Source: an uncultured Eubacteriales bacterium (GTDB lineage: Bacteria; Bacillota; JAAYKD01). From it: a DNA stretch of 64,000 bases. The DNA lies in NCBI GenBank assembly GCA_964425745.1, contig CAYRNW010000004.1:67833-131832 (forward strand), written 5' to 3'. Both the position numbers and the translations under genes were made by a program. This document shows, in pieces, positions 9,926 through 59,880 of this stretch. Numbering within the stretch: the first letter of the stretch is position 1; the number at the start of each line of letters is the position of its first letter. Under the pieces are notes generated by a model. The model worked only from the letters and a program-made list of their open reading frames with translations, did no database searches and had not been told where the DNA came from.

Positions 9926-9975
9926 GCAGAATTTATTCCTTTTTATTATACCATTTCGGTGAATGCTGTCAACGC

Positions 9976-10016: not shown

Positions 10017-10054
10017 GAGGTTCATGTGCGAGCGCCGATTGAAAAAATCTTAGT

Positions 10055-38493: not shown

Positions 38494-39246
38494 CTAAATC
38501 TCTAAAAACAGTTTCAGCATGAAAGAAATCAAGAATGTCACCAACATCATAGAAAAACTTTTCAACCCATACCAGTTATTCTTTGCTTTCTGAATCTTCC
38601 AATCTACCGCTTGATAACGTGTCAGATAATTCGTGGGCTCAAGTGTTGCTAAAAACGCTTTTTGGGGCTGCACGTTTAGGATCCTTTGAAACAGATCCAC
38701 AAAAAAACTGACCAATAACCCTATTAGAAAAAAGTAGTCCTTAGAAGATTTTTTGAAACTGGGGATACTATACATAATATAGGCGGCCACAAGGATGACG
38801 GCAACCTCGAAAAGAATCGGCAAGTAGAAGTTAGACCGGGCTGTTTTAATGGGAGCATAGTTGAGATTGTTTCTCCAAAACCAGTCATCCATAGCATTCT
38901 TATCTTCCGTAACAAAGATGTGGAAAACAACATCTTTCTCAAACCAATTTTTATTCATAGAAGTAACCAACTTCCAGCCAGCGCGTTCCAAGGTTCCTTG
39001 AAGAGATGCATCCAACTGTGTCGGACCTAGAAGAAGGCGATACGTCAGCTCTTTCGACATCGATTTTTCATAGGTAAACGAATAATTGTTAGCAGAAATC
39101 TGTTTCAGTTCAAAACCCTCTTTGGCCTGATCCGCTAAGAAAGACTCCAATTCCCGAACATAAAAAGGGCTAAACGGAACAGGTCTCGAGACTTCGTTCT
39201 CGTTTTTTGGCACAACTCGCTCGGTTCGAATAAACAACTCTGCCAT
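38494..39246 (-). CDS. hypothetical membrane protein (possibly DUF2812-like)
   Basis: Soluble N-terminal domain followed by C-terminal TM helices. Confidence 0.35.
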   Translation of the reverse strand: MAELFIRTERVVPKNENEVSRPVPFSPFYVRELESFLADQAKEGFELKQISANNYSFTYEKSMSKELTYRLLLGPTQLDASLQGTLERAGWKLVTSMNKNWFEKDVVFHIFVTEDKNAMDDWFWRNNLNYAPIKTARSNFYLPILFEVAVILVAAYIMYSIPSFKKSSKDYFFLIGLLVSFFVDLFQRILNVQPQKAFLATLEPTNYLTRYQAVDWKIQKAKNNWYGLKSFSMMLVTFLISFMLKLFLEI

Positions 39247-39357: not shown

Positions 39358-40083
39358 TTACCTCGAAACAATCTCTTCAATCTTCCCGTCTTTCAGCTTC
39401 ACCACGCGGTCGGCAATCTCTGCCACTTCTGGGTTGTGGGATGCCACAATGACCGTAACCCCTTGTTGGTTCAACTTGCGCATGAGGTCCAGTACCATGG
39501 TGTGGTTGGCACTATCGAGGTTTCCGGTAGGCTCATCTGCCAATAACAACGAGGGCTGATTCATCATAGCTCTGGCGATGGCCACACGCTGTTCTTGCCC
39601 CCCCGATAATTCTCCCGGGAAATGATGCATACGATCTGCCAAATCCACCTGGCGTAGTAACTCCTCTGCACGCTCCTGCACTTCTTTTGGAGGCTTGAGC
39701 TTAGTCACATATTTTGCCGGTTGCATTACATTCTCCAAAGCGGTTTTGTCTTCAAGTAAGTTATAGTCTTGAAAGATGAAGCCGATCTTTTCAGCCCGAA
39801 AAGCAGATAGCTTTTTGTCGTTCGTGCTCGACAAGTAGCCCAAGCTTTCGGTCCCTGCCAGCATTTCATCTTCAAAGCGGTAGCTCCCCTCCTCGGGTTG
39901 TAGAAGCGTCCCCAACAAGTAAAGGAAGGTTGACTTACCGCTACCAGAGGGCCCCCACAGAGTAATCCATTCGCCACGGCGAACTTCTAAATTTGCCTGA
40001 TCGAGTGCACGAATTTCTACCTCGCGCTTATGATAAATCTTACTCATATCTTTGACTGTCAGTAATGGACGATATCCTTCCAT
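39358..40083 (-). CDS. ABC transporter ATP-binding protein (MacB/LolD/FtsE type), copy 1
   Basis: Walker A 'GPSGSGKST', signature 'LSGGQQQR', Walker B 'LLLADEPT'. Confidence 0.9.
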   Translation of the reverse strand: MEGYRPLLTVKDMSKIYHKREVEIRALDQANLEVRRGEWITLWGPSGSGKSTFLYLLGTLLQPEEGSYRFEDEMLAGTESLGYLSSTNDKKLSAFRAEKIGFIFQDYNLLEDKTALENVMQPAKYVTKLKPPKEVQERAEELLRQVDLADRMHHFPGELSGGQEQRVAIARAMMNQPSLLLADEPTGNLDSANHTMVLDLMRKLNQQGVTVIVASHNPEVAEIADRVVKLKDGKIEEIVSR

Positions 40084-40102: not shown

Positions 40103-41269
40103 TTACCGTTTCAACTCGGCTATAGCTTGTTCAAGTATATTTAACATGACGACATTGTCTTCTTTATTGCCCAGGGTCAAACGGCAAATCCATTCGTTGA
40201 TCATGATTCCTTGTTCATCGAACAAGAAGAAACTATTCAACCTCACATCTCGATCATCTGCTTCTACCAACATGGGGTGAATAGTAGGACCTAGATTGAA
40301 TCTCCGCACCATTTCATAGGATTGATCTTCGTAAATCAGTAAATCTGGATACTTCTGTCGCAAACTCTCTGTTTCTTTCAAATATACATTTATTTGAATC
40401 TCATAGAAATTACGATAATACCACTCGATTTTTGTCTCCGCGTCCTCACGGTGCGCCAGTTCTTGTTGTATGATTGGGTACCTTGTATGCGCATCGGTAG
40501 TTGGTAGAACAACCACCACTTGTATCTGATCTTCTAAAGTATCGAGCAAAGTATATAATTGCAAGTTGGAGTTTCCAATTGTCCAAAGAATCAACAAGGT
40601 GGGTTTGGTTATTTTCAGTACTTCTTTTTCTTGTGTTTCCGACCGAACTAAGCAAAGCTCATGCAAAGGCTTACCGATTTGCACCGGTATTAGTGTTTCT
40701 TCTGCCGTGACTAAATAGGAATAAACATCTTCATACTGCCCAACTGCATAATAGAAATACTGCCTTTGAATCACCCCGTCTTCCAACAACCAAATCATAG
40801 GGTGAAAGTTTTTTATAATGTTCAGATAATCTTGCTTAAATCCCAGTTTCATTAAATCACTCAGCTGCATTTTGACCAGTGCGCAATTGGCAGGTAAATC
40901 CATCACCTCATAGAAAGGCAAACCGCGATTTACAGCCAATCCGGCAATCAATAGCGTAACGGGAGCAACCTCGGCAAGCTGCAATAATTCTTCCATAAAC
41001 AATTCTTCGTATAAGGTATCGCTGCCCGATGTCAAGATAACGAAGCCATCCTGTATTCCTGAAACGGGAAACATATCTCCTGGCTGCGTTTGAATGTATT
41101 CACGTTGTTTTGTTACTTCTTCTTCTGAAAAAGGTTTTAACACACTCCATAGCTTGGGAGCGTCTTGAGAAATAACAGGTTCTTTTTTTTGCGGTTGACA
41201 TCCGCTGAGTAAAACAAGGAGAAACACTAAAAACATAACGCTTATTTTCACCAAGAACGACCGTTTCAT
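40103..41269 (-). CDS. lipoprotein of an uncharacterised family ('family A'), copy 1
   Basis: Lipobox 'LLSGC'. Paralogs at 47731-48900 and 53765-54931, and a distant one at 51505-52578. Confidence 0.55.
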   Translation of the reverse strand: MKRSFLVKISVMFLVFLLVLLSGCQPQKKEPVISQDAPKLWSVLKPFSEEEVTKQREYIQTQPGDMFPVSGIQDGFVILTSGSDTLYEELFMEELLQLAEVAPVTLLIAGLAVNRGLPFYEVMDLPANCALVKMQLSDLMKLGFKQDYLNIIKNFHPMIWLLEDGVIQRQYFYYAVGQYEDVYSYLVTAEETLIPVQIGKPLHELCLVRSETQEKEVLKITKPTLLILWTIGNSNLQLYTLLDTLEDQIQVVVVLPTTDAHTRYPIIQQELAHREDAETKIEWYYRNFYEIQINVYLKETESLRQKYPDLLIYEDQSYEMVRRFNLGPTIHPMLVEADDRDVRLNSFFLFDEQGIMINEWICRLTLGNKEDNVVMLNILEQAIAELKR

Positions 41270-41288: not shown

Positions 41289-43859
41289 TTACAGCAATTC
41301 TCCAGGTTCTTTACGCGAGAACAAAACTGCCGGTAGCCAAGCCGTCAAGATTGCGCTCAGCAAACACAGCAAGAGAGGCCCGAATATTAGTAATGCGACA
41401 TTGGGCGTAAGCCTTAAGTTCTGACCCGATAGATACTGCTGTAAAAACGATATTCCCGTTGCCAATAGCCCAGCTGCAACAAAAGGATAACCGGTTCTTT
41501 TCATAAGTTGAATGACAATTTGTTGAGCGGTAGCACCGATGGTTCTTTGTATACCTGTGTATTTCGAAATTTCTCGCGTCTTGACAATGGTAAAAGCAAA
41601 CAGACCAAAACATGTTTGCAGAATCAGCAGAGCAATCAGGAACCACGAGGTATACATGTAGCTGCGCTGCATATCGAGAGTGCGCTGCAAATCATAAGAC
41701 GGTTCAATTACTTTAATATCCGGTGTTTCCCGCAGCTTCTCGCTGAGTTGTTGATATAATTCTTTTATTCTGGTATAGTCGCTGTTTCTTATGATGATTT
41801 GCGGCGCAACTTTGTTCTGCCAAAAGGTGTCTTTATTTTTTTCATCGGTTGTATAAATACTGAGCAACGGGAAGCTCAACCCTGGCCGCTCCATATAGTC
41901 ACCCAAATCAATGATTCCGACGATTTTTTTAGTTTCTTTCGGACCGTAGCTATAGAATTCTACCTCTTTTCCTACAGCATTTTCCACTGAAGTAAATAGG
42001 ACTTCTGCCAATTCTCTTCCCACCGCTATTTCTTCATATCGCTGCGGCCAACTGCCTAGGCTGACGTCTAACCCTTGGGTTTCGGTATACTTTCCGGCAG
42101 TAACGATAAGGTTAGTTGTATACTGTACTCCATTCACTAGAAAGGAGTATCTTGAATAGGAGCCTTGCCAAGCAATACTTTCTTCTTCCACTCCCATTTC
42201 AACTAGTTTGCCGATATAAGCGCTCGGTAGATGTGCTTCATTGACTTGATGTACACTTTGAATTTGTATCAAGTCAAATTGAGAGGTTATCAGCTTTGTC
42301 TCCAGACGGTCTGTTTCCATGATGGTGGACCAGGTACTTTGCTGTATGGCAAGAACGAGCAAGAAAAAGGTCAGTACACTGAGTTCCCGCCGAAAATCAA
42401 TTTTCCCCCATTGGAATCGTGATTTCCCTTTTAAGGCGTCGATAGGACTCTGCCCTAAGACAAAGAAGGAACAGATTACACTACTGAAAGGGGCAAAGCA
42501 CAAGGTGATGATTAGAAACGGAACGAGCGAACTGATTTGAAAGACATACCGGATGTCCAGAAAATGGTAGCAAATATTTAGCACCAACCACAACCCGGGT
42601 AGGGATATGGAAGCCGCTCCTAACGAAAGGTTCAAGTAGTTCTTAGCATACTCCAATTCGATTTGGTCGGTGCCCGAACCCATAGAACGGCGTATCGCAA
42701 TGGCTTTACGCTCTTGATATAAATGCAACATGAGCAAAGACGTGATCAGGAGCATGGAAATGCCCACCATTTTCATAAACAAATTAATAAGAGGAGCTAA
42801 TTCCGCATACTCCATACCGATTTTGAGCGGGGGGGTCAAATCGACCGGGATAGAATAGACCTCTGCCTGAAAGCGATCTTCGAAGGTATCGAGGACTTTT
42901 CGCAAGGTTAATGAAATGTTTTCTTTCTGATCGATTTTAATCAAGAGGTAGTTGGAAGGTTCCGGGTTAAAAAAAGAATTGGCTTCTTCTTCAAGCTTGC
43001 TGCCTTCCAGGTATAAACCGGAATCACTGGTGTTTCCTAGGTCAGCATTAAGTTCTTCCTGAGTTGCCGCCTTTCTCTCAAGAGGATAATGGAGTTCAGC
43101 CGTCATACGGCTCAAGAAAGCTGTATCATCCCCGTAATCAAGATATACCCTGCGGTCGGTATCACTCGGATAAATCTGAGAACCTGTCCATTGTAAGGAT
43201 GTTAAGATTTTCTGTGGGTAAAGATACTCCAGCGAAGTTAAAAAACTAGGTTTCCAATCGAAAAGATCAATTGGAGCTCCCTCGAAATAAAAACCTGCCG
43301 CATCATAGATGTTCTTCATGGGTAACCCGAATTCCCATTTGTGACTTTCGTTCGCATACGCTCCCAACACCGCCCAATTATGATCCAATTCGTCGGGTAA
43401 GCGATCTGCTTCCGGGGCCAATTGCATGATTCTGAAATAGCTTGGTTCCACAAACAATGTCTGAACAGCGTCATGGAAATAGGACATCGTACCAAGCAGC
43501 GTTTCTGTAGGGCGATTCTCTTCATAATGCGTAAAAATGACGCGATTTTTCGCGACCAAGGATACTTCTTCCACATGTTCAATTTCTTTGATCTGTTTAC
43601 TGTCTGCTGTTGTAAAGTACTCGGATGTAGAAAGTGCTGTATCGTAATCCCAGCCAATAGCATAGATTAAAGTCTGATCTTTTTTCTTTTCTTCATCGAG
43701 TTGAACTTCAATTCCACTGCTTAAGCTGGCTGCAGCCATGACGCAGATCTCGAATAAGAGTATGCTTGTAAACAGAATCACAGAAATCGTCCTAGTCATT
43801 GGTTCCATGGAACGAAAACGCTGGTACAAATTCCTTATGGTTTGGTTTAGTTTACTCAT
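41289..43859 (-). CDS. ABC transporter permease, tandem FtsX-like (MacB-like), copy 1
   Basis: About 857 aa. Start set at MSKLNQT (RBS GAGGTG). It has two 4-TM FtsX blocks, each preceded by a large extracytoplasmic domain. Confidence 0.8.
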   Translation of the reverse strand: MSKLNQTIRNLYQRFRSMEPMTRTISVILFTSILLFEICVMAAASLSSGIEVQLDEEKKKDQTLIYAIGWDYDTALSTSEYFTTADSKQIKEIEHVEEVSLVAKNRVIFTHYEENRPTETLLGTMSYFHDAVQTLFVEPSYFRIMQLAPEADRLPDELDHNWAVLGAYANESHKWEFGLPMKNIYDAAGFYFEGAPIDLFDWKPSFLTSLEYLYPQKILTSLQWTGSQIYPSDTDRRVYLDYGDDTAFLSRMTAELHYPLERKAATQEELNADLGNTSDSGLYLEGSKLEEEANSFFNPEPSNYLLIKIDQKENISLTLRKVLDTFEDRFQAEVYSIPVDLTPPLKIGMEYAELAPLINLFMKMVGISMLLITSLLMLHLYQERKAIAIRRSMGSGTDQIELEYAKNYLNLSLGAASISLPGLWLVLNICYHFLDIRYVFQISSLVPFLIITLCFAPFSSVICSFFVLGQSPIDALKGKSRFQWGKIDFRRELSVLTFFLLVLAIQQSTWSTIMETDRLETKLITSQFDLIQIQSVHQVNEAHLPSAYIGKLVEMGVEEESIAWQGSYSRYSFLVNGVQYTTNLIVTAGKYTETQGLDVSLGSWPQRYEEIAVGRELAEVLFTSVENAVGKEVEFYSYGPKETKKIVGIIDLGDYMERPGLSFPLLSIYTTDEKNKDTFWQNKVAPQIIIRNSDYTRIKELYQQLSEKLRETPDIKVIEPSYDLQRTLDMQRSYMYTSWFLIALLILQTCFGLFAFTIVKTREISKYTGIQRTIGATAQQIVIQLMKRTGYPFVAAGLLATGISFLQQYLSGQNLRLTPNVALLIFGPLLLCLLSAILTAWLPAVLFSRKEPGELL

Positions 43860-43901
43860 CTTACACCTCAATTTAAGACACATTAAAAACATTAATTGGA
43901 T

Positions 43902-44993
43902 TTATTGTTTGCCGAAATATTGCTCAACAAGCAAAAGTGGATCTTGGTAATCTCCTGTTTCTGAAAACGCACTATTTACCAGCATTAAGAAAAAGCGACT
44001 AACAATTTCGTTGTTTTCATTCACGATGATCATACTCGGGTATTGATATAGATTTAGCTTTACGCCTAACTCGTTATAGTCGTCGGTATATACTGCACAA
44101 CTCTCATTGAGTATATTCAGCAATCCTGTAACTCTCTCCTTTTGCATTAGCTGACCAGTCTTAATGCTTTCATATGATTCCTCAGATATTTCAAACTCGC
44201 CATAATAAGCATCCATCTCTTGAAAAGCTTCTAGCATATAAGCCCCATTATTATTAATCACAATAGTTGGTTTTATTGGCCATTCCTGCTTCAGTATCCA
44301 AGACGCAGCATCCATGCAAATTGAACATTCCGGTGAAAGTGTAATTAGGATTTTCTTTCCTTTTTCATTATAAGTAAGCGGTTCACCATTTTCTCTTTTA
44401 AGGTACAATTCCGGGAAAGAACCTCCTAGACCTGCTATTTTTACCGTTGAAAGATAATCACTCAATAAAAGGAAGTCTTTGATTTTTTTCCAATCCTGCA
44501 CACGGAAATTACTGTATTTGTTAACTACGGTTCTGTTTCTAACGCTGTAAAGGACAGGAAGACGACCTAAGGTATACTCTGCTATATCCGTTTCTTTTAA
44601 CAGAATTATTTCACTGCCTTTGGGCAGTGCTTGTGATAGCTGATCATCTCGAGTTTCACCTTCTTTGATGACTGCAATATAGGTAATCGGTTGTGCGTAG
44701 TCTATATTCACAAGATTTAAAACTAAATTGTTAACCAATCCCTCATATCCATCACAAATGAAAACCATATTGTATGTTGTTTCTATTGGGAAAAAATCAT
44801 CTATATCTAAACCAAGATACACTTTTGTAAAGTACATTTCACTGTCATTCTTACTCGTCATTAGCTTATATTCTATTTCGTCATCTTTTTCTCTATTCAT
44901 CAATTCGCTGTTATTGCTGCAGGAAGTTAGAACAAAAAGCAATACTATTGAAAACAGCAACAGGAATGTTTTATCGTTTCGGTGAACTAACAA
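43902..44993 (-). CDS. lipoprotein with C-terminal thioredoxin-like CxxC domain ('family B'), copy 1
   Basis: Lipobox 'LTSC'. 'LTLSPECSICMD...YPSMIIVNENNEIV' follows the thioredoxin beta1-CxxC-alpha1 and cis-Pro pattern. TTG start with RBS AGGAGAGGG. Confidence 0.5.
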   Translation of the reverse strand: MLVHRNDKTFLLLFSIVLLFVLTSCSNNSELMNREKDDEIEYKLMTSKNDSEMYFTKVYLGLDIDDFFPIETTYNMVFICDGYEGLVNNLVLNLVNIDYAQPITYIAVIKEGETRDDQLSQALPKGSEIILLKETDIAEYTLGRLPVLYSVRNRTVVNKYSNFRVQDWKKIKDFLLLSDYLSTVKIAGLGGSFPELYLKRENGEPLTYNEKGKKILITLSPECSICMDAASWILKQEWPIKPTIVINNNGAYMLEAFQEMDAYYGEFEISEESYESIKTGQLMQKERVTGLLNILNESCAVYTDDYNELGVKLNLYQYPSMIIVNENNEIVSRFFLMLVNSAFSETGDYQDPLLLVEQYFGKQ

Positions 44994-45061: not shown

Positions 45062-45355
45062 CTACTTAGTCACAACTAATGGCAAAGCTTTCAAATAGCC
45101 GCATGGCACGGGGTAATATGCACATCTTCTTGAAATCTCGACCTGATTGATGTAATATATTTCCAAATCGGGATTATATGGATCTGAAGCCCCGCACATA
45201 CCGCAAAAAACACAGTAGCATGTAGTTTCACCAGGTACTACTAATTGTGCTGCCATACAATCCATTCCACAAGGATTAGCATTTGCAAATGCAAGAGAAC
45301 TAAGCATAATACTGAAAACAATAGTAAACGAGAGCATCCTAGTCAATTTCGACAT
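45062..45355 (-). CDS. Sec-signal small secreted protein with 8 Cys (about 70 aa mature), paralog 1
   Basis: Start at MSKLTRM (RBS GGAAAGGGGA) and a signal peptide ending AFA/NA. Mature part 'C..C..C.C..CG.C...PY.PDL...Y.N.VE..R.C.Y.PVPCG..K' is shared with 55032-55310. Confidence 0.6.
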   Translation of the reverse strand: MSKLTRMLSFTIVFSIMLSSLAFANANPCGMDCMAAQLVVPGETTCYCVFCGMCGASDPYNPDLEIYYINQVEISRRCAYYPVPCGYLKALPLVVTK

Positions 45356-45823
45356 ATGAATTCCCCTTTCCATTTTTTATGTTACATGCATCCGCATGAG
45401 TTGCACAGGCATCATAACTTTATAAATACAAGATAATTGAAAGTTTCTTTATTATTAGTGTAAATTACGGACACTAAACACCACGTGCACGGGCAAATAA
45501 CGCCAGTCCATCGGAGTTTTAACACCAGTCAATCGTTAAAACATCACCAGTGAAACGGAAGTAAACACCAACATAATGGCTTGACAATAAAGAAACCTAG
45601 TGGCATCATAAAAGTGCGTTTACTCATATGCAGGATAAGGCAACGCTGAGGAGCGACCTGAGCGGTATATGAGGTTTTGCGGGAGAGTGATGCCATAAAA
45701 GGTGTCGCTCTTTTCTTTTGCGTTTAAGCGAAAGATAACAAGATTCATGAAATCACTCTCCTGGTAAAACTAAAGCGAAAAACCTTGGGGGTGCGGGGGC
45801 AAAGCCCCCGGTGATACTAAGAA

Positions 45824-46597
45824 CTAGATCTCATCCAAACTTTTTAATTCGTGACGTTCGCGCATGGATTTCTTGCCTTGAATCATAATCTCAACAGCAT
45901 TGTGAACAATACGATCCATAATGGCATCTGAGATAGGGCTGCTACTTTCAGAGTTAGCATTCATTCGCTCATACCAATCATTGGTATCGTACTGGGTGCA
46001 GAAAATTGTAGAGCCACCAGAGCAGCGAGTTTCAATGATTTCAAGTAGATTGTAGGACTCTTGTAGGGTGAGACTGCGAATAAGCCATTCATCCAAAATC
46101 AACAAGTCAACTTTTTTGTTACTCTTAATGACTTTCTTAAATTCTCCTGCGATTTGTGCCAAGCTTAGTTCTTCCAATAGTTCAGGTAAGCGGATATAAC
46201 GCACTGTTTTAAACTTTCTACATGCTGCATTACCCAATGCACAAGCCAGATATGTTTTACCATTTCCAGAAGCACCTTTGAGAATAATGTGGTGTCCTCC
46301 CTCCATGTATTTACAAGTGGAGAAGCGAATAATTTGTCCCTTATCTAAACGACGATCCTCGTGGTATTCAATCCCTTCAATGGTTGCACCTGGAATGGCG
46401 AAATGTGCGTTGCGAATGAAGCGCAACAATTTATTTCGTTGTCTTTGATTCCATTCCGAATCGACAAGTAGTGAAAGCCTTTCCTCAAAACCTAATTGGT
46501 TATAGGAGCGTGGATCCTGCATTTGTATTTCGAACTCAGAAGCCATGGCACTAAACCGAATTACTCGAAGTAACTCGACCGTAGATTGGTTGATCAT
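45824..46597 (-). CDS. istB: IS21-family transposition helper ATPase IstB
   Basis: 'ILKGASGNGKTYLACALG' Walker A. Start at MINQSTVELL, overlapping the istA 3' end. Confidence 0.8.
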   Translation of the reverse strand: MINQSTVELLRVIRFSAMASEFEIQMQDPRSYNQLGFEERLSLLVDSEWNQRQRNKLLRFIRNAHFAIPGATIEGIEYHEDRRLDKGQIIRFSTCKYMEGGHHIILKGASGNGKTYLACALGNAACRKFKTVRYIRLPELLEELSLAQIAGEFKKVIKSNKKVDLLILDEWLIRSLTLQESYNLLEIIETRCSGGSTIFCTQYDTNDWYERMNANSESSSPISDAIMDRIVHNAVEIMIQGKKSMRERHELKSLDEI

Positions 46598-46958
46598 TGT
46601 GGTTACCTCCTTTTCGGAAGTAATCAGCTCCATGGGTAATGCCCTGTTTGTTCGGAATTGTCTCTTGTGTAGTAACCTGAACTTTATCCTGTCCATTTTT
46701 CAAGATTGTCGTAAGGGTTCGAATGCTTGGTGTTTGTGTAAATGCCAAGAGACGTTCGCAAGCTTTCTCCAGTCGCTTCGCTCCATACCGTTCGGAGAGC
46801 TTAATCAAGCTGGCACATGCCTTGAAACCCTGCTCAACTTCTCTCCCCAAAGAAAGGAAATATTGCATAACCGCAGCTGTTTTTGGTCCTACTTCAAGAC
46901 TCCAAGCTGTAAAACTTTCACTGTTGTAGGTTAAAAATTTCTTGTGTTCAGGTGTCAT
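46551..46958 (-). pseudogene. istA: IS21 transposase IstA, C-terminal fragment only
   Basis: About 135 aa in the usual IS21 overlap arrangement with istB. The catalytic N-terminal two-thirds are missing. Confidence 0.55.
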
Positions 46959-46979: not shown

Positions 46980-47711
46980 CTACTTCATATTAACTTCCAC
47001 TTCTTCAATCTTGCCATCCTTGAGTTTAACAACCCGATCAGCAATTTCAGCGACCTCGGGGTTGTGTGAAGCTACGATCACCGTCATTCCTTCTCGATTG
47101 AGTTTCTGCATGAGATCGAGCACCATTTTGTGATTTGCACTGTCAAGATTGCCAGTGGGTTCATCAGCTAACAACAAAGAAGGCTGGTTCATCATTGCTC
47201 GGGCTATTGCTACCCGTTGCTCTTGTCCACCCGATAATTCTCCCGGAAAATGTTGCATACGATCACCTAAGTCTACCTGACGCAGCAACTCCATGGCGCG
47301 CTCTTGGACTTCTTTTTGGGGTTTGAGCTTAGTCACATATTTTGCCGGTTGCATTACATTCTCCAAAGCGGTTTTGTCTTCAAGTAAGTTATAGTCCTGG
47401 AAGATGAAGCCGATTTTTTCAGCCCGAAATGCAGATAGCTTTTTGTCATTCGTACTAGATAAGTAGCCCAAGCTTTCGGTTCCGGCCAGCATTTCATTTT
47501 CAAAACGATAGCTACCTTCCTCAGGTTGTAGCAACGTCCCCAACAAATAAAGGAAGGTTGACTTACCGCTACCAGAGGGTCCCCACAAAGTAATCCATTC
47601 GCCACGGCGAACTTCTAGATTTGCCTGATCGAGTGCACGAATTTCTACCTCGCGCTTATGATAAATCTTACTCATATCTTTGACTGTCAGTAATGGACGA
47701 TATCCTTCCAT
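46980..47711 (-). CDS. ABC transporter ATP-binding protein (MacB/LolD/FtsE type), copy 2
   Basis: Over 90% identical to copy 1 at protein level. The C-terminus diverges ('EEVEVNMK'). Confidence 0.9.
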
Positions 47712-47730
47712 GGTTTTCTACTCCTTTCCC

Positions 47731-48900
47731 TTACCGTTTCAACTCGGCTATAGCTTGTTCAAGTATATTTAACATGACGACATTGTCTTCTTTATTGCCC
47801 AGGGTCAAACGGCAAATCCATTCGTTAACCAAAATCCCTTTTTCATTGAATAAGAAAAAACTGTTTAATTCCGCAAATCGATCATCTACTTCTTTCAACA
47901 TAGGGTGAGTAAGATGAACTAAATTGAACCTTCGAACAATTTCATAAGATTGGTCCTCGAATATCATCAAATAAGGATACATTTGGGCTATACTTTCCAG
48001 TCGAGCCATATATTTATTCATCAGAAAATCATAGTTTTTTCTAGAAAACCATTCGATTTTTTCTTCAACATTTTCTCGTGTTGCCAGTTCGTGCAATAAT
48101 ACAGGGAATCGCGTTCGCACTTCAGTATTCTGTAAAACTAGTATGATTTGCACTTTCTCTATGAGAGGATCAATTAACGCACTCAGTTGCGGAAGTGAAT
48201 TCTCTAAAGACCAATGTATCATTAAAGTCGGTTCGGAGATCTTAATCGTTTCCTTTTCTTGAGAGCTCGATCGAACAAGAACAAGTTCTTGTAATGCTTT
48301 GCCGATTTCTACCGGAAACATAGAAACTTCATCTGTAGTAAAATGAGTGTAAACATCTTCATATTGCCCAACTGCATAATACAGATATTGCCTTTGAATC
48401 ATCCCGTCTTTTACTTGCCAAATCGTAGGATGATAGTAATAGATTAGATTCAAGTAATCTTGCTCGAAACCTAAACTCAATAAGTCACTCAACTTCAGTT
48501 TTACTACTTCAGAATTGCTGGGTAGAGTCATAACTTCATAGAAGGGTTCTGAGCGGAGCGGTGCCAGTCCGGCAATAAGCAACGTGACCGGAGCAAGATC
48601 AGCTAATTGTAAGAGGTCTTCCATGCAAAGTTCTTCATAGAGGGTATCACTTCCAGATGTTAGGATAACGAACCCGTCTTCTATACCAGGAATTGGAAAC
48701 TCATCTCCCGGTTTCGTATTGATATACTTGCGTTGTTTAAGTTTTTCTTCCTCTGAAAGGGGTTTCAGCACACTCCATAGTTTAGGTGCATCTTGATCTA
48801 CAACTGGCTCTATTTCTTTTTGAGGTTGACATCCACTAAGTAAGATGACTAGAAACACCAAGAATAAAACACCCATCTTGATAAAAAAGGAGCGATTCAT
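47731..48900 (-). CDS. family-A lipoprotein, copy 2
   Basis: Start at MNRSFF (RBS AAGGAAGGTGG). The last about 30 aa are identical to copy 1. Confidence 0.55.
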   Translation of the reverse strand: MNRSFFIKMGVLFLVFLVILLSGCQPQKEIEPVVDQDAPKLWSVLKPLSEEEKLKQRKYINTKPGDEFPIPGIEDGFVILTSGSDTLYEELCMEDLLQLADLAPVTLLIAGLAPLRSEPFYEVMTLPSNSEVVKLKLSDLLSLGFEQDYLNLIYYYHPTIWQVKDGMIQRQYLYYAVGQYEDVYTHFTTDEVSMFPVEIGKALQELVLVRSSSQEKETIKISEPTLMIHWSLENSLPQLSALIDPLIEKVQIILVLQNTEVRTRFPVLLHELATRENVEEKIEWFSRKNYDFLMNKYMARLESIAQMYPYLMIFEDQSYEIVRRFNLVHLTHPMLKEVDDRFAELNSFFLFNEKGILVNEWICRLTLGNKEDNVVMLNILEQAIAELKR

Positions 48901-48919
48901 ATGTTGATAACCACCTTCC

Positions 48920-51487
48920 TTACAGCAAATCTCCGGGTTCTTTTCGCGAGAATGCCACTGCCGGTAACCAAGATGCAAAAATTGCACTCCCTATACATAA
49001 CAGGAAGGGTCCGAAAATCAGGATTACCGCTTCGCTTGTATACCACAAAGTCTGACCTGAGGTTGTTTGTTGCAGTAGTGAAAGTCCAGTTGCCAATACT
49101 CCTGCTACTACAAAAGGAAAACCAGTACGCTTCATCAGTTGACGAATGATTTGTTTGGCAGTCGCACCCATGGTTCTTTGGATTCCGGTGTATTTGGAAA
49201 TCTCGCGTGTTTTTACTATGGTGAAAGCAAATAACCCGAAACAGGTTTGTAAAACTAGCATACCAATGAGAAACCATGAAGTCAGCATGACACTGTGCTG
49301 CATGTCCAGAGTACGCTGTAAATCAAACGAAGGTTCAATGACTTTTATATCGGGTGTCTCGCGGTATTTTTCACTGAGTTGCTCATGCAATTCCTGGATC
49401 CTACCGTAGTCACTATTCCTAATAATGAGTAGCGGTGCCACTTTGTTTTGCCAAAACGTGTCTTTGTTCTTTTCATCCGTGGCATAGATACTGAGTAATG
49501 GATAACCTAATTCGGGCCGCTCCATGTACTCACCCAGTGTGACAATTCCTACAATTCGTTTACTCTCTCTCGTCCCGTAGCTGGGGAATTGCATCACTTT
49601 CCCTAAAGCCTCTTCTGCTGAGCCAAACAATGTCTCTGCTAGTTCTTCCCCTACTGCAATTTCCTCGTATTCTTGTGGCCAATAACCCTGACTCACCAAC
49701 AATCCTTGAGATTCTTGGTAATGACCGGCGGTGACCACCAAGTTGGTGGTAAATTGCATACCATCTACATAAAAACTAAATCTCGGATACGTTCCCTGCC
49801 AGCCTATACTCTCTTCTTCTACCCCTAGCCCGGTGAGTTTATATATGATTTCGCTGGGTAAATGATCTTCGTTTACCTTATGAATACTTTGAATTTGTAT
49901 CATATCAAACTGAGAGGTTCGTAGTTTTGCTTCCAGTTTAGCTGTTTCCATAATGGTAGACCAGGTGCTTTGTTGTATGACGACAATCAATAAAAAGAAA
50001 GTCACAACACTAAGCTCGCGCCGGAAATCAATTTTACCCCATTGGAATCGTGATTTCCCTTTTATGGCATCAATCGGACTCTGACCCAAAACAAAGAACG
50101 AACAAATTACACTACTGAACGGGGCGAAGCTCAAGGTGATGATTAGAAACGGAACGAGCGAACTGATTTGAAAGACATACCGGATGCCCAGAAAATGGTA
50201 GCACATATTTAGCACCAACCACAACCCGGGTATGGATATGCAAGCCGCTCCTAACGAAAGGTTCAAATAGTTCTTAGCATACTCCAACTCGATTTGGTCG
50301 GTGCCCGAACCCATGGAACGGCGAATAGCTATGGCCTTTCTTTCCTGATACAAATGCAACATAAGTAAAGAAGTAATGAGAAGCATGGAAATACCGACCA
50401 TGGACATAAACAACTGAATGAGAGGTTGCAATTCTTCGTTATCCATACCAATTTTAAGAGGTGGTATGAGTTCCACAGGGATTGAATAAACCTCACCTTG
50501 AAAGCGATCTTCAAAGGTATCGAGGATCTTTCGCAGAGTTAATGAGATGTTCTCTTTTGAATCAATCTTAACCAGCAAGTAGTTATACGGTTCTGGGTTA
50601 AAAAATTCTCTGGCAAGGGTTTCTTCTTTGCTTCCTTCTATATAATAACCAACATGCTCATTGGAATTTCGTTTCACCCAAAATTCCTCCATAGTAACCA
50701 GCATCCTTGGTAAAGCAAAATGCAACCCAGCGTTGCTTCGGGCTATAAAATTTTGATCACTCGCATAGTCAAAGTAAACAAGCTCATCCCCAGGAAGCGG
50801 TTTCACCGGATTAGAGATCCATTTTAAGGAGGACATGACGATTTGAGGATATTCTTTTTCGACTGATACCGGTGAATCTGGTTTGAAATTCAAAAACTCC
50901 ACATATGTCCCTGCAAAATCAAATCCTTTAGTGTCATAAATATTGTTCAGGGTTGATCCAATCTCCCATTGGTGAAGTTGAGATACAGCTGCACCTAAAA
51001 CAGCCCAATTTTGGTCGAGTTCATCTGGTAAACGATCCGTCTCAGATGCCATCTGCATAATTCTGAAATAGCTGGGTTCAACAAATATCGAAGGAACAGA
51101 TTTCCTGAAAACCATAGAACCTGAAGAGGTTTCAATTCTCTTGTCTGGCTCATAGTGCATCAAATATTCGCGATTGTTGGCTACTAATGAAACTTCTTCC
51201 ACATGATCAATTTCGAGAACCAACTTTTTATCATCTGAGGAAAAAAACTCTACGGGTGTTACCTTGGAATTATAATTCCATCCAATGGCATACACTAAGG
51301 TCTGGTCTTCCTTTTTTTCGTTTTCTAATTGAACCTCAACCCCATTACTTAAGCTTGCGGCTGCCATGACACAAATCTCGAACAAGAGTATGCTTACAAG
51401 CAAAATCATCGTGATAACTTTACTAATTGGCTCTTTTATCTTGAAACGATAAACCATTTGCTTAATCCTGGTTAGTTTCATCGGCAT
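48920..51487 (-). CDS. ABC transporter permease, tandem FtsX-like, copy 2
   Basis: 855 aa. The central TM block is nearly identical to copy 1. Confidence 0.8.
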   Translation of the reverse strand: MPMKLTRIKQMVYRFKIKEPISKVITMILLVSILLFEICVMAAASLSNGVEVQLENEKKEDQTLVYAIGWNYNSKVTPVEFFSSDDKKLVLEIDHVEEVSLVANNREYLMHYEPDKRIETSSGSMVFRKSVPSIFVEPSYFRIMQMASETDRLPDELDQNWAVLGAAVSQLHQWEIGSTLNNIYDTKGFDFAGTYVEFLNFKPDSPVSVEKEYPQIVMSSLKWISNPVKPLPGDELVYFDYASDQNFIARSNAGLHFALPRMLVTMEEFWVKRNSNEHVGYYIEGSKEETLAREFFNPEPYNYLLVKIDSKENISLTLRKILDTFEDRFQGEVYSIPVELIPPLKIGMDNEELQPLIQLFMSMVGISMLLITSLLMLHLYQERKAIAIRRSMGSGTDQIELEYAKNYLNLSLGAACISIPGLWLVLNMCYHFLGIRYVFQISSLVPFLIITLSFAPFSSVICSFFVLGQSPIDAIKGKSRFQWGKIDFRRELSVVTFFLLIVVIQQSTWSTIMETAKLEAKLRTSQFDMIQIQSIHKVNEDHLPSEIIYKLTGLGVEEESIGWQGTYPRFSFYVDGMQFTTNLVVTAGHYQESQGLLVSQGYWPQEYEEIAVGEELAETLFGSAEEALGKVMQFPSYGTRESKRIVGIVTLGEYMERPELGYPLLSIYATDEKNKDTFWQNKVAPLLIIRNSDYGRIQELHEQLSEKYRETPDIKVIEPSFDLQRTLDMQHSVMLTSWFLIGMLVLQTCFGLFAFTIVKTREISKYTGIQRTMGATAKQIIRQLMKRTGFPFVVAGVLATGLSLLQQTTSGQTLWYTSEAVILIFGPFLLCIGSAIFASWLPAVAFSRKEPGDLL

Positions 51488-51504: not shown

Positions 51505-52578
51505 TTAAGGTTGCCTTGTCTTCAGAACCTCGATAATCTGATGATACACATAGGTTGATTCATCTTCTATAGGAACTAACTTATTTTCGCAAGTCCATTG
51601 AGCTATCAATAGCCCGTTTGTATCTAGTAGATAGATAATACATTTGCTTGTCGCCTTATCCTTAGAAAAGCGATTTGTGATTTCGAGGTTCATATCCTCG
51701 TACCATGTGATGTTGTGCCATCTTTTTTTTAATGTTGTTAGAGCAGTTGGGTATTCTTCTACTAGTTTCTCCCAATCCTGATACATTCTTTCTCGTGATT
51801 CTGTTAATTCTATGTCAGGTCTCTGTTCAACTAGCTCTTTCAATAACGGGAAATAGCGATATGGGAAAAACGAGTTTACAACAGGCACGACACGATAAGG
51901 CTGCACAGATAATTCATCGATTAAGCGGTAGATTGGTTCTTCATTACCCCATATTTCAAATTCAATCAATAATGTAGGTTGATCTATTGTTAGAATGACT
52001 TTTTCATGGTCAATAGGCATACTAAGCGGTAATTCTTCAACAGAGTAAGGGTTGTTTATTAGTAACTTGAAATACTCAAAATCAATACCCGGTTGAAGGT
52101 TCAACCATTGATCAACGATGATGCCCTTAGATATTCTCCATAATTTTGGGTAATAAGATTCGCCAACCCGCTTATTCTTATATACCTTTTCGAGTTCGTT
52201 ACTCTCAATTTTTCGTAATGTTATATTAGATTGTTCAAGCAAATATTCATACAAATTGTGTGCTTCATCATCATTAGGAAGGTTTTCATAGAGAATAGTT
52301 AGTGACTTATCTGAAAAGGCGTTCGAAAATTCCTTCACCATTATGTTACTTGTTCCAAATTGAAAGGAATATGTTAACAAGATGAACTCATTATCGATTT
52401 CTTTTATGGGAAAACCATCTCCCACCTTGGTACTAACGTGAGCTAGATTCGACAATTCTTCAGTTGTTAACGGCGATAAAACCATGCGTTTGATTCCAGA
52501 TAGCTCATTTTGTTTTGTTTCAACCACTTCCTGAGACGAACAACCAATGATCAACACAAATATGCCTATATATAGCAA
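51505..52578 (-). CDS. lipoprotein, distant member of family A (start codon uncertain)
   Basis: 'IIGC' lipobox. Shares 'GDGFPIKEIDNEFILLT' and C-terminal blocks with family A. An upstream in-frame AGGAGGTG RBS suggests an earlier non-ATG start. Confidence 0.4.
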   Translation of the reverse strand: MLYIGIFVLIIGCSSQEVVETKQNELSGIKRMVLSPLTTEELSNLAHVSTKVGDGFPIKEIDNEFILLTYSFQFGTSNIMVKEFSNAFSDKSLTILYENLPNDDEAHNLYEYLLEQSNITLRKIESNELEKVYKNKRVGESYYPKLWRISKGIIVDQWLNLQPGIDFEYFKLLINNPYSVEELPLSMPIDHEKVILTIDQPTLLIEFEIWGNEEPIYRLIDELSVQPYRVVPVVNSFFPYRYFPLLKELVEQRPDIELTESRERMYQDWEKLVEEYPTALTTLKKRWHNITWYEDMNLEITNRFSKDKATSKCIIYLLDTNGLLIAQWTCENKLVPIEDESTYVYHQIIEVLKTRQP

Positions 52579-52645
52579 AAGTAGTTTAATGAATTTTGAC
52601 CTTTTCGTAATCTCACCTCCTGAAGACTTGTTATAATCCGTCTTG

Positions 52646-53749
52646 TTATTTAGCTAAATCTAACGGATTTTCATATCCTTCAAATAGATTCTTGCCTTCA
52701 GGATTTACCAAAGTAATCACCCTAGCATGTTTTAAACAGCCATTCTCATCTGTGATTACCATGAAAGGATAACCAATTTCAACGAAATTCTTTTTCAAAT
52801 CACCAAGGCTGTCCTTTAAAACAGTAAAGTCATCACCTAACAATTCAATATAAGCTTTAACCTTTTCGCGCATTCCCAAATCCCATTGTTGCATTTGTGT
52901 TAGGAGTTCCTCATCTACTATAACTTGAGGGAAAGAATCCTTGAAATTTTCAATTGAGTCTGAATAGTATGAACTATCATCAATAATAATCGTCGGCTTT
53001 ACTTTCCAATCAGATTGTTTTATCCATGGTATTATATCAGAACATATTGAGCACGTCGGTGATAAAAACAAATAGCATTGTTTACCATTTGTATTAAGCT
53101 CGATTTCATGGTCTGTTTCATCAAAAAGGCTCAAAATCGGAAATTTCTCTCCCTCAATAAATGATGATTTTGTAATGCCTATGTGTTTTTTTGAGCTCAT
53201 GATTTCGTTAATCTCTGGCCAATCTTGAAATCTGATATTCGCTTTCTTATATTCTACAATTCCATCTTTAATATAGTAAATTGCAGGAAAAGAACCAATT
53301 GACCATTTATTCAACATATTATCGTCATAATAAATTATTTCTGTATCTTCCGAAAGACCATTTATTATCTGATCTAACATTGAAGAATTTTCTTCCGTCC
53401 TTGCAGGGAGCAAAGAAGTAATGTCTTTGATTTCATTCTGGTAGCATAACTGTACTATCATTGTGGTAATCAAATCCAAAGTTCCATTCAAAACCAAAAT
53501 ATAGCCTTCATTAGATTTTTCCGGATAGAGTTCCTGGGTTTTTATTTTACCATTTAGCTCTTCTAGCAGACCATCAGTAAATTTTTTACTTGTAGCAACT
53601 AAAAACTCCTTATTATCATAGCCACTTTTAACTTTAAGATCGTTAACTCTAAAATGACAGGCGCTTAGTAAAAAGCAAATCAATATCAAAATAAAAAAGG
53701 TTTTCGGTTTTTCACTTCTTCTTCTGTTTGCTCGCAACACATCAATCAC
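52646..53749 (-). CDS. family-B thioredoxin-like CxxC lipoprotein, copy 2
   Basis: 'LSAC' lipobox and a 'LFLSPTCSICSD' CxxC motif. Confidence 0.5.
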   Translation of the reverse strand: MIDVLRANRRRSEKPKTFFILILICFLLSACHFRVNDLKVKSGYDNKEFLVATSKKFTDGLLEELNGKIKTQELYPEKSNEGYILVLNGTLDLITTMIVQLCYQNEIKDITSLLPARTEENSSMLDQIINGLSEDTEIIYYDDNMLNKWSIGSFPAIYYIKDGIVEYKKANIRFQDWPEINEIMSSKKHIGITKSSFIEGEKFPILSLFDETDHEIELNTNGKQCYLFLSPTCSICSDIIPWIKQSDWKVKPTIIIDDSSYYSDSIENFKDSFPQVIVDEELLTQMQQWDLGMREKVKAYIELLGDDFTVLKDSLGDLKKNFVEIGYPFMVITDENGCLKHARVITLVNPEGKNLFEGYENPLDLAK

Positions 53750-53764
53750 CTCTAATTGCCCAAC

Positions 53765-54931
53765 TTATTTCAACTCAGTTATTGCTTGCTCCAAAATAGT
53801 CAGCATTTCATATCTGTCTTCTTGATTCCCCAAAGTCATGCGGCACTGCCAGTCTTTAACCAAGATACTTTTTGCATTGAACAGGTAGAACGAATAAAGC
53901 ATAACTCCACGGTCCTCTCCTTTCATCAACGAGTAATGCAGAATCTGTAAAGAATTCAGCCTACGTATCATTTCGTGATTTTGATCTTCATATATCTTCA
54001 ACTCGGGATATAGTTTCATTATATTGTTGATGTTACTTAGTTCAACTGATGTTTGGTTTTTCATACTTTCAATATATTTCCATTCAATTCTATCTTCAGC
54101 ATCATAAGACGATGCTAAAGCTTCTAAAAGCACAGGATAACGAGTGCGAATATCTGTTGTCTTAAGCACCAGAAATATCTGCACCTTGTTCTGAAAATAG
54201 TCTAAGAAGGTTTGTAGCAATGCATTTGAATTCTCAAATGACCAAAGAATAAGCAGAGTTGGCCGGTCTATTTGAACCAGTTCTCTCTCTTGACCTCGTG
54301 CCTGAACCAAATATAATTTTTGCAAGGGTTGTCCAACTTGAATCGGCGAAATCATGGAATCATCGTTTGTGAAGTGCTCATATATATCTGCATATTGACC
54401 GACTACATAATAAAGATATTGATTTTGGATAATACCCTTCTCTATTTGCCAAACTGCTGGATGATAGTATTTTTCAATTTCAATATAATCTTCATCAAAA
54501 CCCAAACTAATCAAACCATTTCTATCAATCTTAACAATCTCAACATTTGTTGGGAGTTGAATCTTATCAAAGAATGAATTAGAAGCAGGAGATACTAATC
54601 CGGCAATTAAGATAGTTATTGGGGCTAAATCAGATAGTTGCAAAAGTTCACGCATACATAACTCTTCATAGAGATTTGGTCCCCCTGTAGTAAGTATTAT
54701 ATACCCATCTGTTAAGCCCTTAATTGGAAACTCGCTGTTTACTACTGTGTCAATGTATTGATGCTGTTTTACTCTTTCTTCTTGCGATAAAGGTTTTAAG
54801 ACACTCCATAATTTCGGTTCCTCAATGTTCTCCTTAGGTGTCACATTTTTCATTGATTGACACCCACTGAGTAATACTATTAAGAACACTATTAGTGTGA
54901 CGAAAGCATTGTTATAGATGGAGTGCTTCAT
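53765..54931 (-). CDS. family-A lipoprotein, copy 3
   Basis: 'LLSGCQS' lipobox. C-terminus 'RMTLGNQEDRYEMLTILEQAITELK' parallels copies 1 and 2. Confidence 0.55.
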   Translation of the reverse strand: MKHSIYNNAFVTLIVFLIVLLSGCQSMKNVTPKENIEEPKLWSVLKPLSQEERVKQHQYIDTVVNSEFPIKGLTDGYIILTTGGPNLYEELCMRELLQLSDLAPITILIAGLVSPASNSFFDKIQLPTNVEIVKIDRNGLISLGFDEDYIEIEKYYHPAVWQIEKGIIQNQYLYYVVGQYADIYEHFTNDDSMISPIQVGQPLQKLYLVQARGQERELVQIDRPTLLILWSFENSNALLQTFLDYFQNKVQIFLVLKTTDIRTRYPVLLEALASSYDAEDRIEWKYIESMKNQTSVELSNINNIMKLYPELKIYEDQNHEMIRRLNSLQILHYSLMKGEDRGVMLYSFYLFNAKSILVKDWQCRMTLGNQEDRYEMLTILEQAITELK

Positions 54932-55031
54932 TTCATTATCATCTCCAATTCTCGAGAATAAGTAATTCGCTTTATGTATATAATGACTAATTTACGCACG
55001 TTAGGTTTGTATAGCCATGCTGGAGATTATA

Positions 55032-55310
55032 CTACCTACTCGGCAATTCCATACCTTTTATCCAACCACAAGGTACTGGTCTATATGTGCAGTATCTGTT
55101 TACCTCAACATAGTTTTGATAAACTACAGCTAGATCAGGAGTGTAAGGTTCATATGAGCACCACCCGCAAAGTGTACATACACAATAGGTGTTATCGGCA
55201 TTACAATCTACTACATCAGCAATGGCGCACATTGGATTGGCAAGAGCAAAAGACGAAAATAGTGTGGACAACAATCCAAACAACATTATTATAATCAAAT
55301 ATTTTTTCAT
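55032..55310 (-). CDS. Sec-signal small secreted 8-Cys protein, paralog 2
   Basis: Start at MKKYLII (RBS AAAGGAGA). Signal peptide ends ALA/NP. Cys pattern is conserved with paralog 1. Confidence 0.6.
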   Translation of the reverse strand: MKKYLIIIMLFGLLSTLFSSFALANPMCAIADVVDCNADNTYCVCTLCGWCSYEPYTPDLAVVYQNYVEVNRYCTYRPVPCGWIKGMELPSR

Positions 55311-55490
55311 TTTCTTTTCTCCTTTTATTAAATCCAGCATGGCTATCTATCAATGCTGGTGAAATACCTAAAGTTAACTCCAGCATATCAAGCGAAAAAC
55401 TTATTCACCAGGTTTTCCTCACATAAACCCAACATACTTTAGTGAGTAAGGATACTATGCTATTATACGAACTCTATATTTAACCGTTAT

Positions 55491-56714: not shown

Positions 56715-56912
56715 TTACTTCTTCATCTTACCCGCTATGAGCGAGGCCACATATACCACTCCGGCTAAGACAATAAGTGGAATCATGACATAAGCAGAGG
56801 TTACCTTAAAAAACACATTAACAATGAGAATGACCAAAAGGATGACAAGCACCAGTCCTGTTAGTTTTTCCTGCAAGGGCGAGAAACGGTAAGGATGTCT
56901 GGGTTCTGGCAT
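56715..56912 (-). CDS. small 2-TM membrane protein (65 aa)
   Basis: ORF between permease 3 and the trx-ccdA promoter. Supported only by hydrophobicity and position. Confidence 0.3.
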   Translation of the reverse strand: MPEPRHPYRFSPLQEKLTGLVLVILLVILIVNVFFKVTSAYVMIPLIVLAGVVYVASLIAGKMKK

Positions 56913-59601: not shown

Positions 59602-59880
59602 TCTCCACACTCCTCATTCATGAAGTCTTCTAGAATCGTCGATATTTTCTATGCGATTTCCATTTTGTTTCATGTGCCTCTTTTTGATTATTTTTATCTC
59701 ATTGCATAATTCTGCATAATTTTCAAAACTCCTTCAAATGATTCTTCTTTTTTCATAATTTTATTTCGCACCGGGGTCAGACCCCGGTGCGAAATAAGGT
59801 GGGGTTTTGTGAGTTGGTTACTGAACTCAAAATGTTTATGGTGTATTCTTCATAACGATCAATACGAGGAGGACGATACC

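Follow-up and report, generated by a model that had tools for sequence, protein, structure and literature searches.

What is the role of the lipoproteins of about 390 residues that recur beside transporter genes in an uncultured Eubacteriales bacterium? We addressed this question in a stretch of 64,000 nucleotides (contig CAYRNW010000004.1 of assembly GCA_964425745.1), which we call the window and which encodes four such proteins, here family A: three close paralogues (A1, A2 and A3) and one distant member (Ad). A first-pass annotation had located the four genes, described each as lying beside an FtsX permease or a peptide gene, and proposed that the proteins are accessories of a MacB-like transporter, akin to MacA or LolA, or else peptide chaperones. 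The four open reading frames (ORFs), all on the minus strand, and their neighbours are as it described them (Table 1). We give about an even chance to the following answer: A is a dedicated extracytoplasmic lipoprotein subunit of a Type VII ABC (ATP-binding cassette) mechanotransducer, in which it serves as a binding or single-thiol tandem thioredoxin-like module.

The family A gene is linked to permease and ATPase genes

In the window, A1 and A2 are each enclosed by a permease gene and an ABC ATPase gene (Perm1-A1-ATPase1 and Perm2-A2-ATPase2), and a third run of genes reads 8-Cys gene-A3-B1-Ad-Perm2. The intergenic spacers are 19 nt long and carry ribosome-binding sites (RBSs). The permease-A-ATPase trio, present twice in the window, is also found at seven other loci (L001, L003, L004, L006-L008, L009) with spacers of about 19 nt. 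A stands between a permease with duplicated FtsX and an ABC ATPase in every permease-A-ATPase locus long enough to show it; L016 ends before the permease and its order is only partly visible. At L006-L008, nothing of the window cluster is present except the trio and a 65-aa membrane protein, which also accompanies the system in L001 (two copies), L003, L009, L014 and L015. A scan for promoters and terminators gave counts equal to the shuffled expectation.

The other genes of the cluster are distributed differently. The genes for two secreted proteins with eight cysteines (8-Cys proteins) are absent from every other locus examined (flanks of ±10 kb where the contig allows). Beyond the window, a fusion of thioredoxin with a membrane domain and the family B lipoproteins (B1 and B2 in the window) are found as a fused remnant in L003 alone, with a short B remnant in L001. 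The A3 orthologue P0009 directly follows permease 3 and the 65-aa protein in L014 and L015, with no 8-Cys gene. In L009, which is syntenic with the window, the 65-aa gene leads straight to permease 2, and the window segment of about 51505-56543 is therefore best described as an accessory insert. Because the 8-Cys, family B and fusion genes are largely restricted to the window while the trio is conserved, we tie the core function of A to the transporter and not to the 8-Cys proteins. A peptide chaperone for the 8-Cys proteins is not supported as the core function, since the other loci keep the trio without an 8-Cys gene in the flanks examined.

Each ATPase is of the LolD/FtsE/MacB type (ABC_tran, E 1e-31). 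The C-terminal half of permease 3 matches MacB structures (E 3e-5) and the permeases give weak matches to LolC/E models. MacB_PCD is recognised in permease 3, barely exceeds the gathering threshold in permease 2 and is not detected in permease 1, for which a search of PDB sequences returned no match. Judged by their sequences, permeases and ATPases belong to the Type VII (MacB/FtsX) ABC superfamily, whose members act through partner proteins to perform mechanical work on the outside of the membrane (PMC5985334; for YbbAP-TesA, PMC12646458).

Family A genes encode lipoproteins under purifying selection

A2, A3 and Ad are 66%, 48% and 25% identical to A1, with tblastn E values (1e-160, 7e-120 and 9e-20) far past chance. 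The lipobox LLSGC-Q with Cys24 is identical in A1-A3, as had been claimed for the close paralogues, and reads LIIGC-S in Ad; in all four it follows K/R and a hydrophobic stretch, which together with L-S-G-C24 (A1-A3) or I-I-G-C (Ad) conforms to the pattern of a lipoprotein signal peptide with lipobox [LVI][ASTVI][GAS]-C. A1-A3 have their signal peptide in common. The conserved blocks quoted in the first-pass annotation are present with small deviations (QYFYYAVGQYEDVY in A1; NSEFPIKGLTDGYIILTTG and QYLYYVVGQYADIY in A3). The mechanical ORF of A2 extends to a GTG at 48987, but its additional part overlaps the gene of the permease upstream. The ATG at 48900 has an RBS (GGAAGGTGG) ahead of it, and for both reasons we place the start of A2 at that ATG, in agreement with the earlier coordinate. 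For Ad, the site at 52606-52608 reads ACG in the window and ATG, with the same RBS, in a 99%-identical metagenome copy (L005). As its sequence reads, the window copy must use a non-canonical or downstream start codon or be impaired; it may be poorly expressed or start non-canonically.

Where dS is not saturated, the ratio of nonsynonymous to synonymous rates (dN/dS) of family A is 0.11-0.28, indicating purifying selection and therefore functional genes. The corresponding values are about 0.1 for the adjacent permease and about 0.04 for the ATPase, so that A evolves faster than both. Divergence within the trio is also discordant. Between window 46980-51487 and L003:7444-11915 the permease is 92%, A 73% and the ATPase 96% identical, whereas between L003:7444-11915 and L004:7291-11921 the permease is 77% and A 91% identical; therefore recombination appears to swap A alleles between permease backgrounds.

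Family A is thioredoxin-like at the fold level

The statement of the first-pass annotation that A has no known domain is true at the level of sequence. For A, Ad and B, no significant family emerged from Pfam, NCBIfam or PADLOC, A has no match at E <= 1 in Pfam or NCBIfam (including Redoxin, AhpC-TSA and Thioredoxin_8), and sequence and profile searches of PDB with the A and B alignments returned noise alone; the best PDB profile match for B is a 'thioredoxin-like protein' (2m72, E 0.87). At the fold level this statement is superseded. A full-length AlphaFold2 model of A1, built on a shallow alignment of 12 sequences, reaches a pLDDT (predicted local distance difference test) of 74 and a pTM (predicted template modelling score) of 0.66, and a Foldseek search of PDB with it gave 85 matches at E <= 1e-3 (best E 2.3e-5, probability 1.00). 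All 50 of the 50 matches listed are thioredoxin-fold proteins, including Tsa2, Prx4, AhpC, the Bacillus anthracis thiol-disulfide oxidoreductase 4nmu, TlpA, CcmG and DsbE. On the strength of the model, we consider family A thioredoxin/peroxiredoxin-like in fold.

The strong part of this signal probably comes from the C-terminal half (residues ~200-388), an assignment based on the alignment lengths (187-219 columns), the weaker N-domain result and the order of secondary structure. Residues 205-387 are predicted as hairpin, b1, a1, b2, a2, insert, b, a, b3, b4, a3, an order in keeping with the TlpA/ResA/Prx topology. A model of the N-domain alone (pLDDT 72) matches Prx5, CcmG, Prx3, Tpx and Sco1 best, all weakly (E 0.013-0.3, TM-score 0.35-0.45). 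The N-terminal half probably belongs to this fold class too, as a degenerate copy; the idea that the two domains are recognisable internal repeats was dropped after hhalign of N- against C-domain found nothing.

The catalytic motifs are lost and a single cysteine is retained

Family A lacks the motifs that define the enzymes of this fold. The site after strand beta-1 of the C-domain, where TlpA/ResA types carry CXXC, has no cysteine (WTIGNSN, WSLENSL, WSFENSN and FEIWGNE), while the aligned site of family B reads SPTCSIC (B1) and SPECSIC (B2). The cis-proline before beta-3 is not conserved in A (GPTIHP, VHLTHP, LQILHY; none in Ad) and is kept in B (GYPFMVI in B1, QYPSMII in B2). Homology between the A and B N-domains is clear (hhalign E 3.7e-7, and 1.7e-5 in another comparison); their C-domains are collinear with weak support (global hhalign P = 0.003). 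From these alignments A is best seen as a CXXC-less relative of B. The peroxidatic PxxxT/SxxC motif is likewise absent from A1-A3 and Ad in the alignment. Because both the CXXC and the PxxxTxxC motif are missing, the fold matches do not clearly assign A to a characterised enzyme family with no bearing on the transporter, the outcome that the first-pass annotation had named as grounds for abandoning its proposal.

What family A retains is a W-x-C at the end of the last beta strand, invariant in A, in Ad (as W-T-C) and in both subfamilies of the sister group A' described below. When 20 sequences from four subfamilies (~22% identity) are aligned, just 4 columns of the C-domain are fully invariant, and the W and C of this motif are two of them; the cysteine, C362 in A1, is the one invariant cysteine of mature A. 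By analogy with Gly92 of Escherichia coli thioredoxin, we take the strand end at C362 to border the classical active-site groove. Since cysteine is generally avoided in exported Firmicute proteins (PMC2823432), the W-x-C thiol is probably functional. We rejected a C362-permease disulfide: the permease cysteines lie in or near predicted membrane segments or near the N-terminus, with C623 of permease 3 as the sole one in an extracytoplasmic domain.

A sister subfamily carries an in-frame TGA

Related loci encode, after a further FtsX permease, a distant family member that we call A' (~23% identical to A1, E 1e-13); no copy is present in the window. In eight of the eight A' copies, which form two subfamilies 30% identical to each other, an in-frame TGA occupies the same column. 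The sequence on either side of it is conserved, (S/A)(G/D)T-TGA-G(L/R), and coding character continues before any ATG is reached; gene callers split the gene into pieces of about 110 and 230 aa. In subfamily A'1 the context, P-x3-S-x2-U after an N-domain beta strand, corresponds to the peroxiredoxin PxxxT/SxxC pattern. Elsewhere in these loci TGA acts as a normal stop codon, and as it ends ordinary genes there we rejected genome-wide TGA reassignment.

The in-frame TGA is most likely selenocysteine, though not proven, and A' is probably a new exported selenoprotein. The TGA is followed, after 10-14 nt, by a small, energetically weak hairpin whose apical loop contains G (for bacterial features of the selenocysteine insertion sequence, SECIS, see PMC1088965). 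Single A' sequences fold no better than shuffles in a SECIS test; the alignment folds at -1.08 kcal/mol, with compensatory changes in 4 of 6 pairs. No Cys-containing A' version was found among the database homologues, every one of which is a C-terminal fragment alone.

Proposed mechanism and rival explanations

We favour a mechanism in which the large extracytoplasmic domains of the permease would be the docking site of lipoprotein A. Mechanotransmission would carry the effect of cytoplasmic ATP hydrolysis to the other side of the membrane, as in FtsEX-EnvC/PcsB, LolCDE-LolA and YbbAP-TesA, and the motion of the permease would drive A to bind, hold or release a ligand; alternatively, the permease may present to A something extracted from the membrane or wall. 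The A domains would form a non-catalytic binding module like the b and b' domains of protein disulfide isomerase (PDI), with the W-x-C thiol probably making a single-cysteine contact to the ligand, for example a mixed disulfide. The CXXC paralogues, the thioredoxin-CcdA-like fusion, the Cys-rich secreted proteins and the probable selenocysteine paralogue point to substrates bearing thiols or disulfides. A is best read as a module that binds or offers a single thiol, in preference to a classical oxidoreductase or an 8-Cys chaperone. A further step, rather improbable in our judgement, would make the loci an ATP-powered extracytoplasmic thiol/selenol machine, whose permeases mechanically drive thioredoxin-fold lipoproteins on the cell surface, a place devoid of ATP, A holding the client as a non-catalytic or single-thiol member and A' acting as the selenoprotein (T-U-G, PxxxSxxU), as a bacterial, energy-coupled counterpart of PDI or as a reductase of lipid/peptide peroxides or of disulfides fed by membrane extraction.

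Several points weigh against the favoured mechanism. Neither A3 nor Ad has an ATPase gene beside it, and the disagreement between A and permease genealogies argues against a tightly co-evolving interface. The A1 model has TM-scores to its targets of only 0.4-0.63 with high rmsd (root-mean-square deviation) and comes from the 12-sequence alignment, and the assignment of the Foldseek match to the C-terminal half is indirect. The place of C362 next to the vestigial active site is deduced from the analogy with thioredoxin, and the permeases offer no conserved extracytoplasmic cysteine able to pair with it. An invariant cysteine in an exported protein could also mean real single-cysteine catalysis and not mere binding.

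The cluster invites an immunity reading, which is unlikely: A would be an immunity or recognition lipoprotein that at the cell surface binds secreted Cys-rich antimicrobials, the 8-Cys proteins for instance, for removal by the FtsX-type ABC system, in parallel to LanI with LanFEG, BceAB and lactococcin-972-type immunity transporters. Two secreted 8-Cys proteins do lie inside the window cluster, each genome has several diverged A paralogues, and the faster evolution of A and its shuffling by recombination are as expected of a recognition component; the many models with which the ATPase scores also include TIGR03608, for putative bacteriocin-export ABC proteins. The absence of 8-Cys genes from all the other loci examined would then require 'orphan' immunity there, and the dN/dS of A is well under 1, no BceRS-type regulator is adjacent, and the invariant W-x-C and the probably selenocysteine-bearing A' suggest chemistry over simple sequestration. 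A dedicated folding chaperone for the 8-Cys proteins, unrelated to the transporter mechanism, is very improbable. Redox-inactive thioredoxin domains can bind unfolded clients, as PDI b' domains do, and A3 is directly downstream of an 8-Cys gene. Gene distribution largely refutes the idea, since the other loci examined have no 8-Cys gene, P0009, the orthologue of A3, stands after permease 3 and the 65-aa protein instead, and A1 and A2 each have a permease gene on one side and an ATPase gene on the other.

As a lipoprotein next to permeases with FtsX/MacB_PCD domains and weak LolC/E matches, A might conversely be cargo that a LolCDE-like permease extracts from the membrane and releases. We see little prospect for this: there is no LolA-like acceptor, the one-to-one pairing of cargo and transporter with several paralogues would be unexplained, and the host is assigned to Bacillota, presumed monoderm and hence without an outer membrane. 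More serious, if still a minority view for us, is that A is a true single-cysteine redox enzyme acting through C362, to which the permease delivers substrate as YbbAP does for the hydrolase TesA. The invariance of C362 in four subfamilies, the in-frame TGA in the N-domain of all A' copies and the precedent of an enzyme partner for a Type VII transporter (PMC12646458) speak for it; C362 is at no known catalytic position of the fold, however, the A C-domain has no resolving cysteine or conserved cis-proline, and most loci encode no electron donor. A solute-binding lipoprotein of an ABC importer, which a lipoprotein in an ABC operon of a Gram-positive bacterium would ordinarily bring to mind, has next to nothing in its favour beyond that setting, because no periplasmic-binding-protein family or two-lobe fold is among the matches and FtsX/MacB-type permeases are not importers (PMC5985334).

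Comparison with known systems

The proposal of the first-pass annotation that A is a transporter accessory stands with the conserved permease-A-ATPase order; the structural part, likeness to MacA or LolA, does not, as thioredoxin-fold matches are the only ones found. Neither MacA/HlyD features (HlyD, Biotin_lipoyl) nor the unclosed beta-barrel of LolA were detected in A by Pfam or Foldseek. What A shares with TesA (YbbAP), EnvC/PcsB/CwlO/RipC (FtsEX), LolA (LolCDE) and MacA (MacB) is being an extracytoplasmic non-transporter protein linked to an FtsX/MacB-type permease and ATPase. Unlike in known Type VII systems, the permease is a fused, duplicated FtsX of 850-890 aa and an extra 65-aa membrane protein is present. 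In the literature searched, a thioredoxin-like fold in the role of Type VII partner is not described; on the favoured reading, this is a Type VII ABC system with a new partner class of that fold.

The best structural matches of A are TlpA/ResA/CcmG (DsbE) proteins (4nmu, 4txo, 2b1k, 3gl3), which, like A, add an N-terminal hairpin and a central insert to the thioredoxin fold and are anchored at the outer face of the membrane. In contrast to these, the A C-domain has no CXXC and no conserved cis-proline but a new invariant W-x-C on its last strand; A has two tandem domains (~390 aa in total), is encoded inside an FtsX-type ABC operon, and has no sequence-level match to Pfam, NCBIfam or PDB. Peroxiredoxins of the Prx5, Tpx and PrxQ types provide the best fold matches of the N-domain (4k7o, 3uma, 5k1g, 2xpd) and many of the full-length ones, yet A has no PxxxTxxC; just subfamily A'1, in other genomes, has P-x3-S-x2-U, with U a probable selenocysteine.

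Thioredoxin-fold domains without CXXC are used as binding modules in the PDI b/b' domains, ERp27/ERp29 and calsequestrin. Family A (inactive + inactive) mirrors PDI b-b' and family B (inactive + active) mirrors PDI b-a'; A differs in having no sequence relationship to PDI, in being a bacterial lipoprotein and in its coupling to an ABC ATPase system. Firmicutes also pair surface lipoproteins with ABC transporters in LanI/NisI/SpaI with LanFEG, and have peptide-resistance transporters such as BceAB. The window A genes resemble these in combining a surface lipoprotein with ABC genes near genes for secreted Cys-rich peptides, and differ in fold, in ABC class (LanFEG), in having no two-component regulator and in that the core occurs without a peptide gene.

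If the favoured mechanism is true, lipoproteins with a thioredoxin fold but no catalytic cysteines would join amidase activators, LolA, MacA and TesA as a new partner class, and in Gram-positive anaerobes the reach of mechanotransmission would be widened towards extracytoplasmic chemistry of thiols or the holding of clients. With B active through CXXC, A inactive and A' probably bearing selenocysteine, the three would offer a natural series for dissecting what the fold does in each state. If the TGA encodes selenocysteine, A' would add a new family of exported lipoprotein selenoproteins that gene callers now split in two.

Family A is rare

Only 9 clusters of family A were recovered by a word-seeded search of 5.8 billion proteins, and 3 representatives by an exhaustive HMMER profile search of 1.84 billion, with no further distant relatives. 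One species among 185,579 species genomes has it (metagenome-assembled genome 'Bacillota bacterium' OY762825.2), tblastn of plasmids gave no match, and we found no description of this combination in the literature searched. Family B is rarer still (2 database matches). A pair of SCIFF peptide and radical-SAM genes lies on one related contig, which we take to suggest a Clostridia-type lineage. On the evidence of these searches, family A is unannotated, extremely rare and confined to an uncultured lineage of Bacillota.

Neighbouring genes and rearrangements

Family B proteins look like catalytically active relatives of A. B1, B2 and the fusion of a thioredoxin domain (CSSC) with a multi-pass membrane domain appear from their distribution to be accessory, B1 lying outside the conserved core. 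By eye the membrane domain of the fusion resembles CcdA/DsbD, although no model matched. At L003:4873-6255 a 460-aa ORF combines, in frame, the thioredoxin part with a family B protein and looks like a deletion scar. The 8-Cys proteins (~75 aa when mature, with the motif C-x-C-x2-C-x2-C) match no family.

Table 1. Features of the window and A' copies in related loci. Positions refer to the window unless a locus is named.
Feature	Position	Strand	Description
A1	40103-41269	minus	Family A lipoprotein, 388 aa; LLSGC lipobox at 41198-41212
A1 N-domain	residues ~42-190		Probable degenerate peroxiredoxin/thioredoxin-like domain
A1 C-domain	residues ~200-388		Predicted thioredoxin-fold domain
A1 WTIGNSN, residues 229-235	40565-40585	minus	CXXC position of TlpA/ResA types, no Cys
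A1 W360-I-C362	40184-40192	minus	W-x-C at end of last beta strand
A2	47731-48900	minus	Family A lipoprotein, 389 aa; identical to database protein P0004
A2 W-x-C	47812-47820	minus	
A3	53765-54931	minus	Family A lipoprotein, 388 aa; orthologue P0009 in L014, L015
A3 W-x-C	53843-53851	minus	
Ad	51505-52578 (to 52608 with orthologous start)	minus	Distant family A member, 357 aa from TTG at 52578
Ad W-x-C	51589-51597	minus	
Permease 1	41289-43892	minus	867 aa; two FtsX and two large extracytoplasmic domains; directly upstream of A1
Permease 2	48920-51487	minus	855 aa; two FtsX, MacB_PCD; directly upstream of A2
Permease 3	56932-59610	minus	892 aa; two FtsX, MacB_PCD
ABC ATPase 1	39358-40083	minus	241 aa; LolD/FtsE/MacB-type; directly downstream of A1
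ABC ATPase 2	46980-47711	minus	243 aa; 95% identical to ATPase 1; directly downstream of A2
65-aa membrane protein	56715-56912	minus	MPEPRHPYRFPPLQEKLT...GKMKK; no family match
B1	52646-53749	minus	Family B lipoprotein, 367 aa; N-domain homologous to that of A; SPTCSIC, GYPFMVI
B2	43902-44993	minus	Family B lipoprotein, 363 aa; SPECSIC, QYPSMII
Thioredoxin-membrane domain fusion	55491-56543	minus	Thioredoxin domain (CSSC) fused to multi-pass membrane domain
8-Cys protein a	45062-45373	minus	Secreted, 103 aa; window only
8-Cys protein b	55032-55340	minus	Secreted, 102 aa; 41% identical to a; window only
A' copy	L001:15130-16215		
A' copy	L004:14586-15680		
A' copy	L009:14564-15652		
A' copy	L010:3047-4141		
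A' copies	L012:5650-6714, 9325-10425		
A' copies	L013:2555-3643, 6263-7354		

From its sequence, the locus is a hotspot of duplication and rearrangement. An IS21 IstB-like gene with short flanking ORFs (45824-46958) lies between the two permease-A-ATPase modules of the window. At L001:5978-7365 a family A copy is split into 106 and 275 aa and is followed by short ATPase and family B remnants.

Two further genes border the cluster. A membrane protein with DUF2812 (38494-39246, minus strand) follows the last ATPase gene in the window and also in L003, L009 and L016; it is not at that place in L001, L004 and L006. A small rhodanese gene (59809-60201, plus strand) lies divergently upstream of permease 3, as it does in L003 and L009, and represents a possible link to sulfur chemistry.

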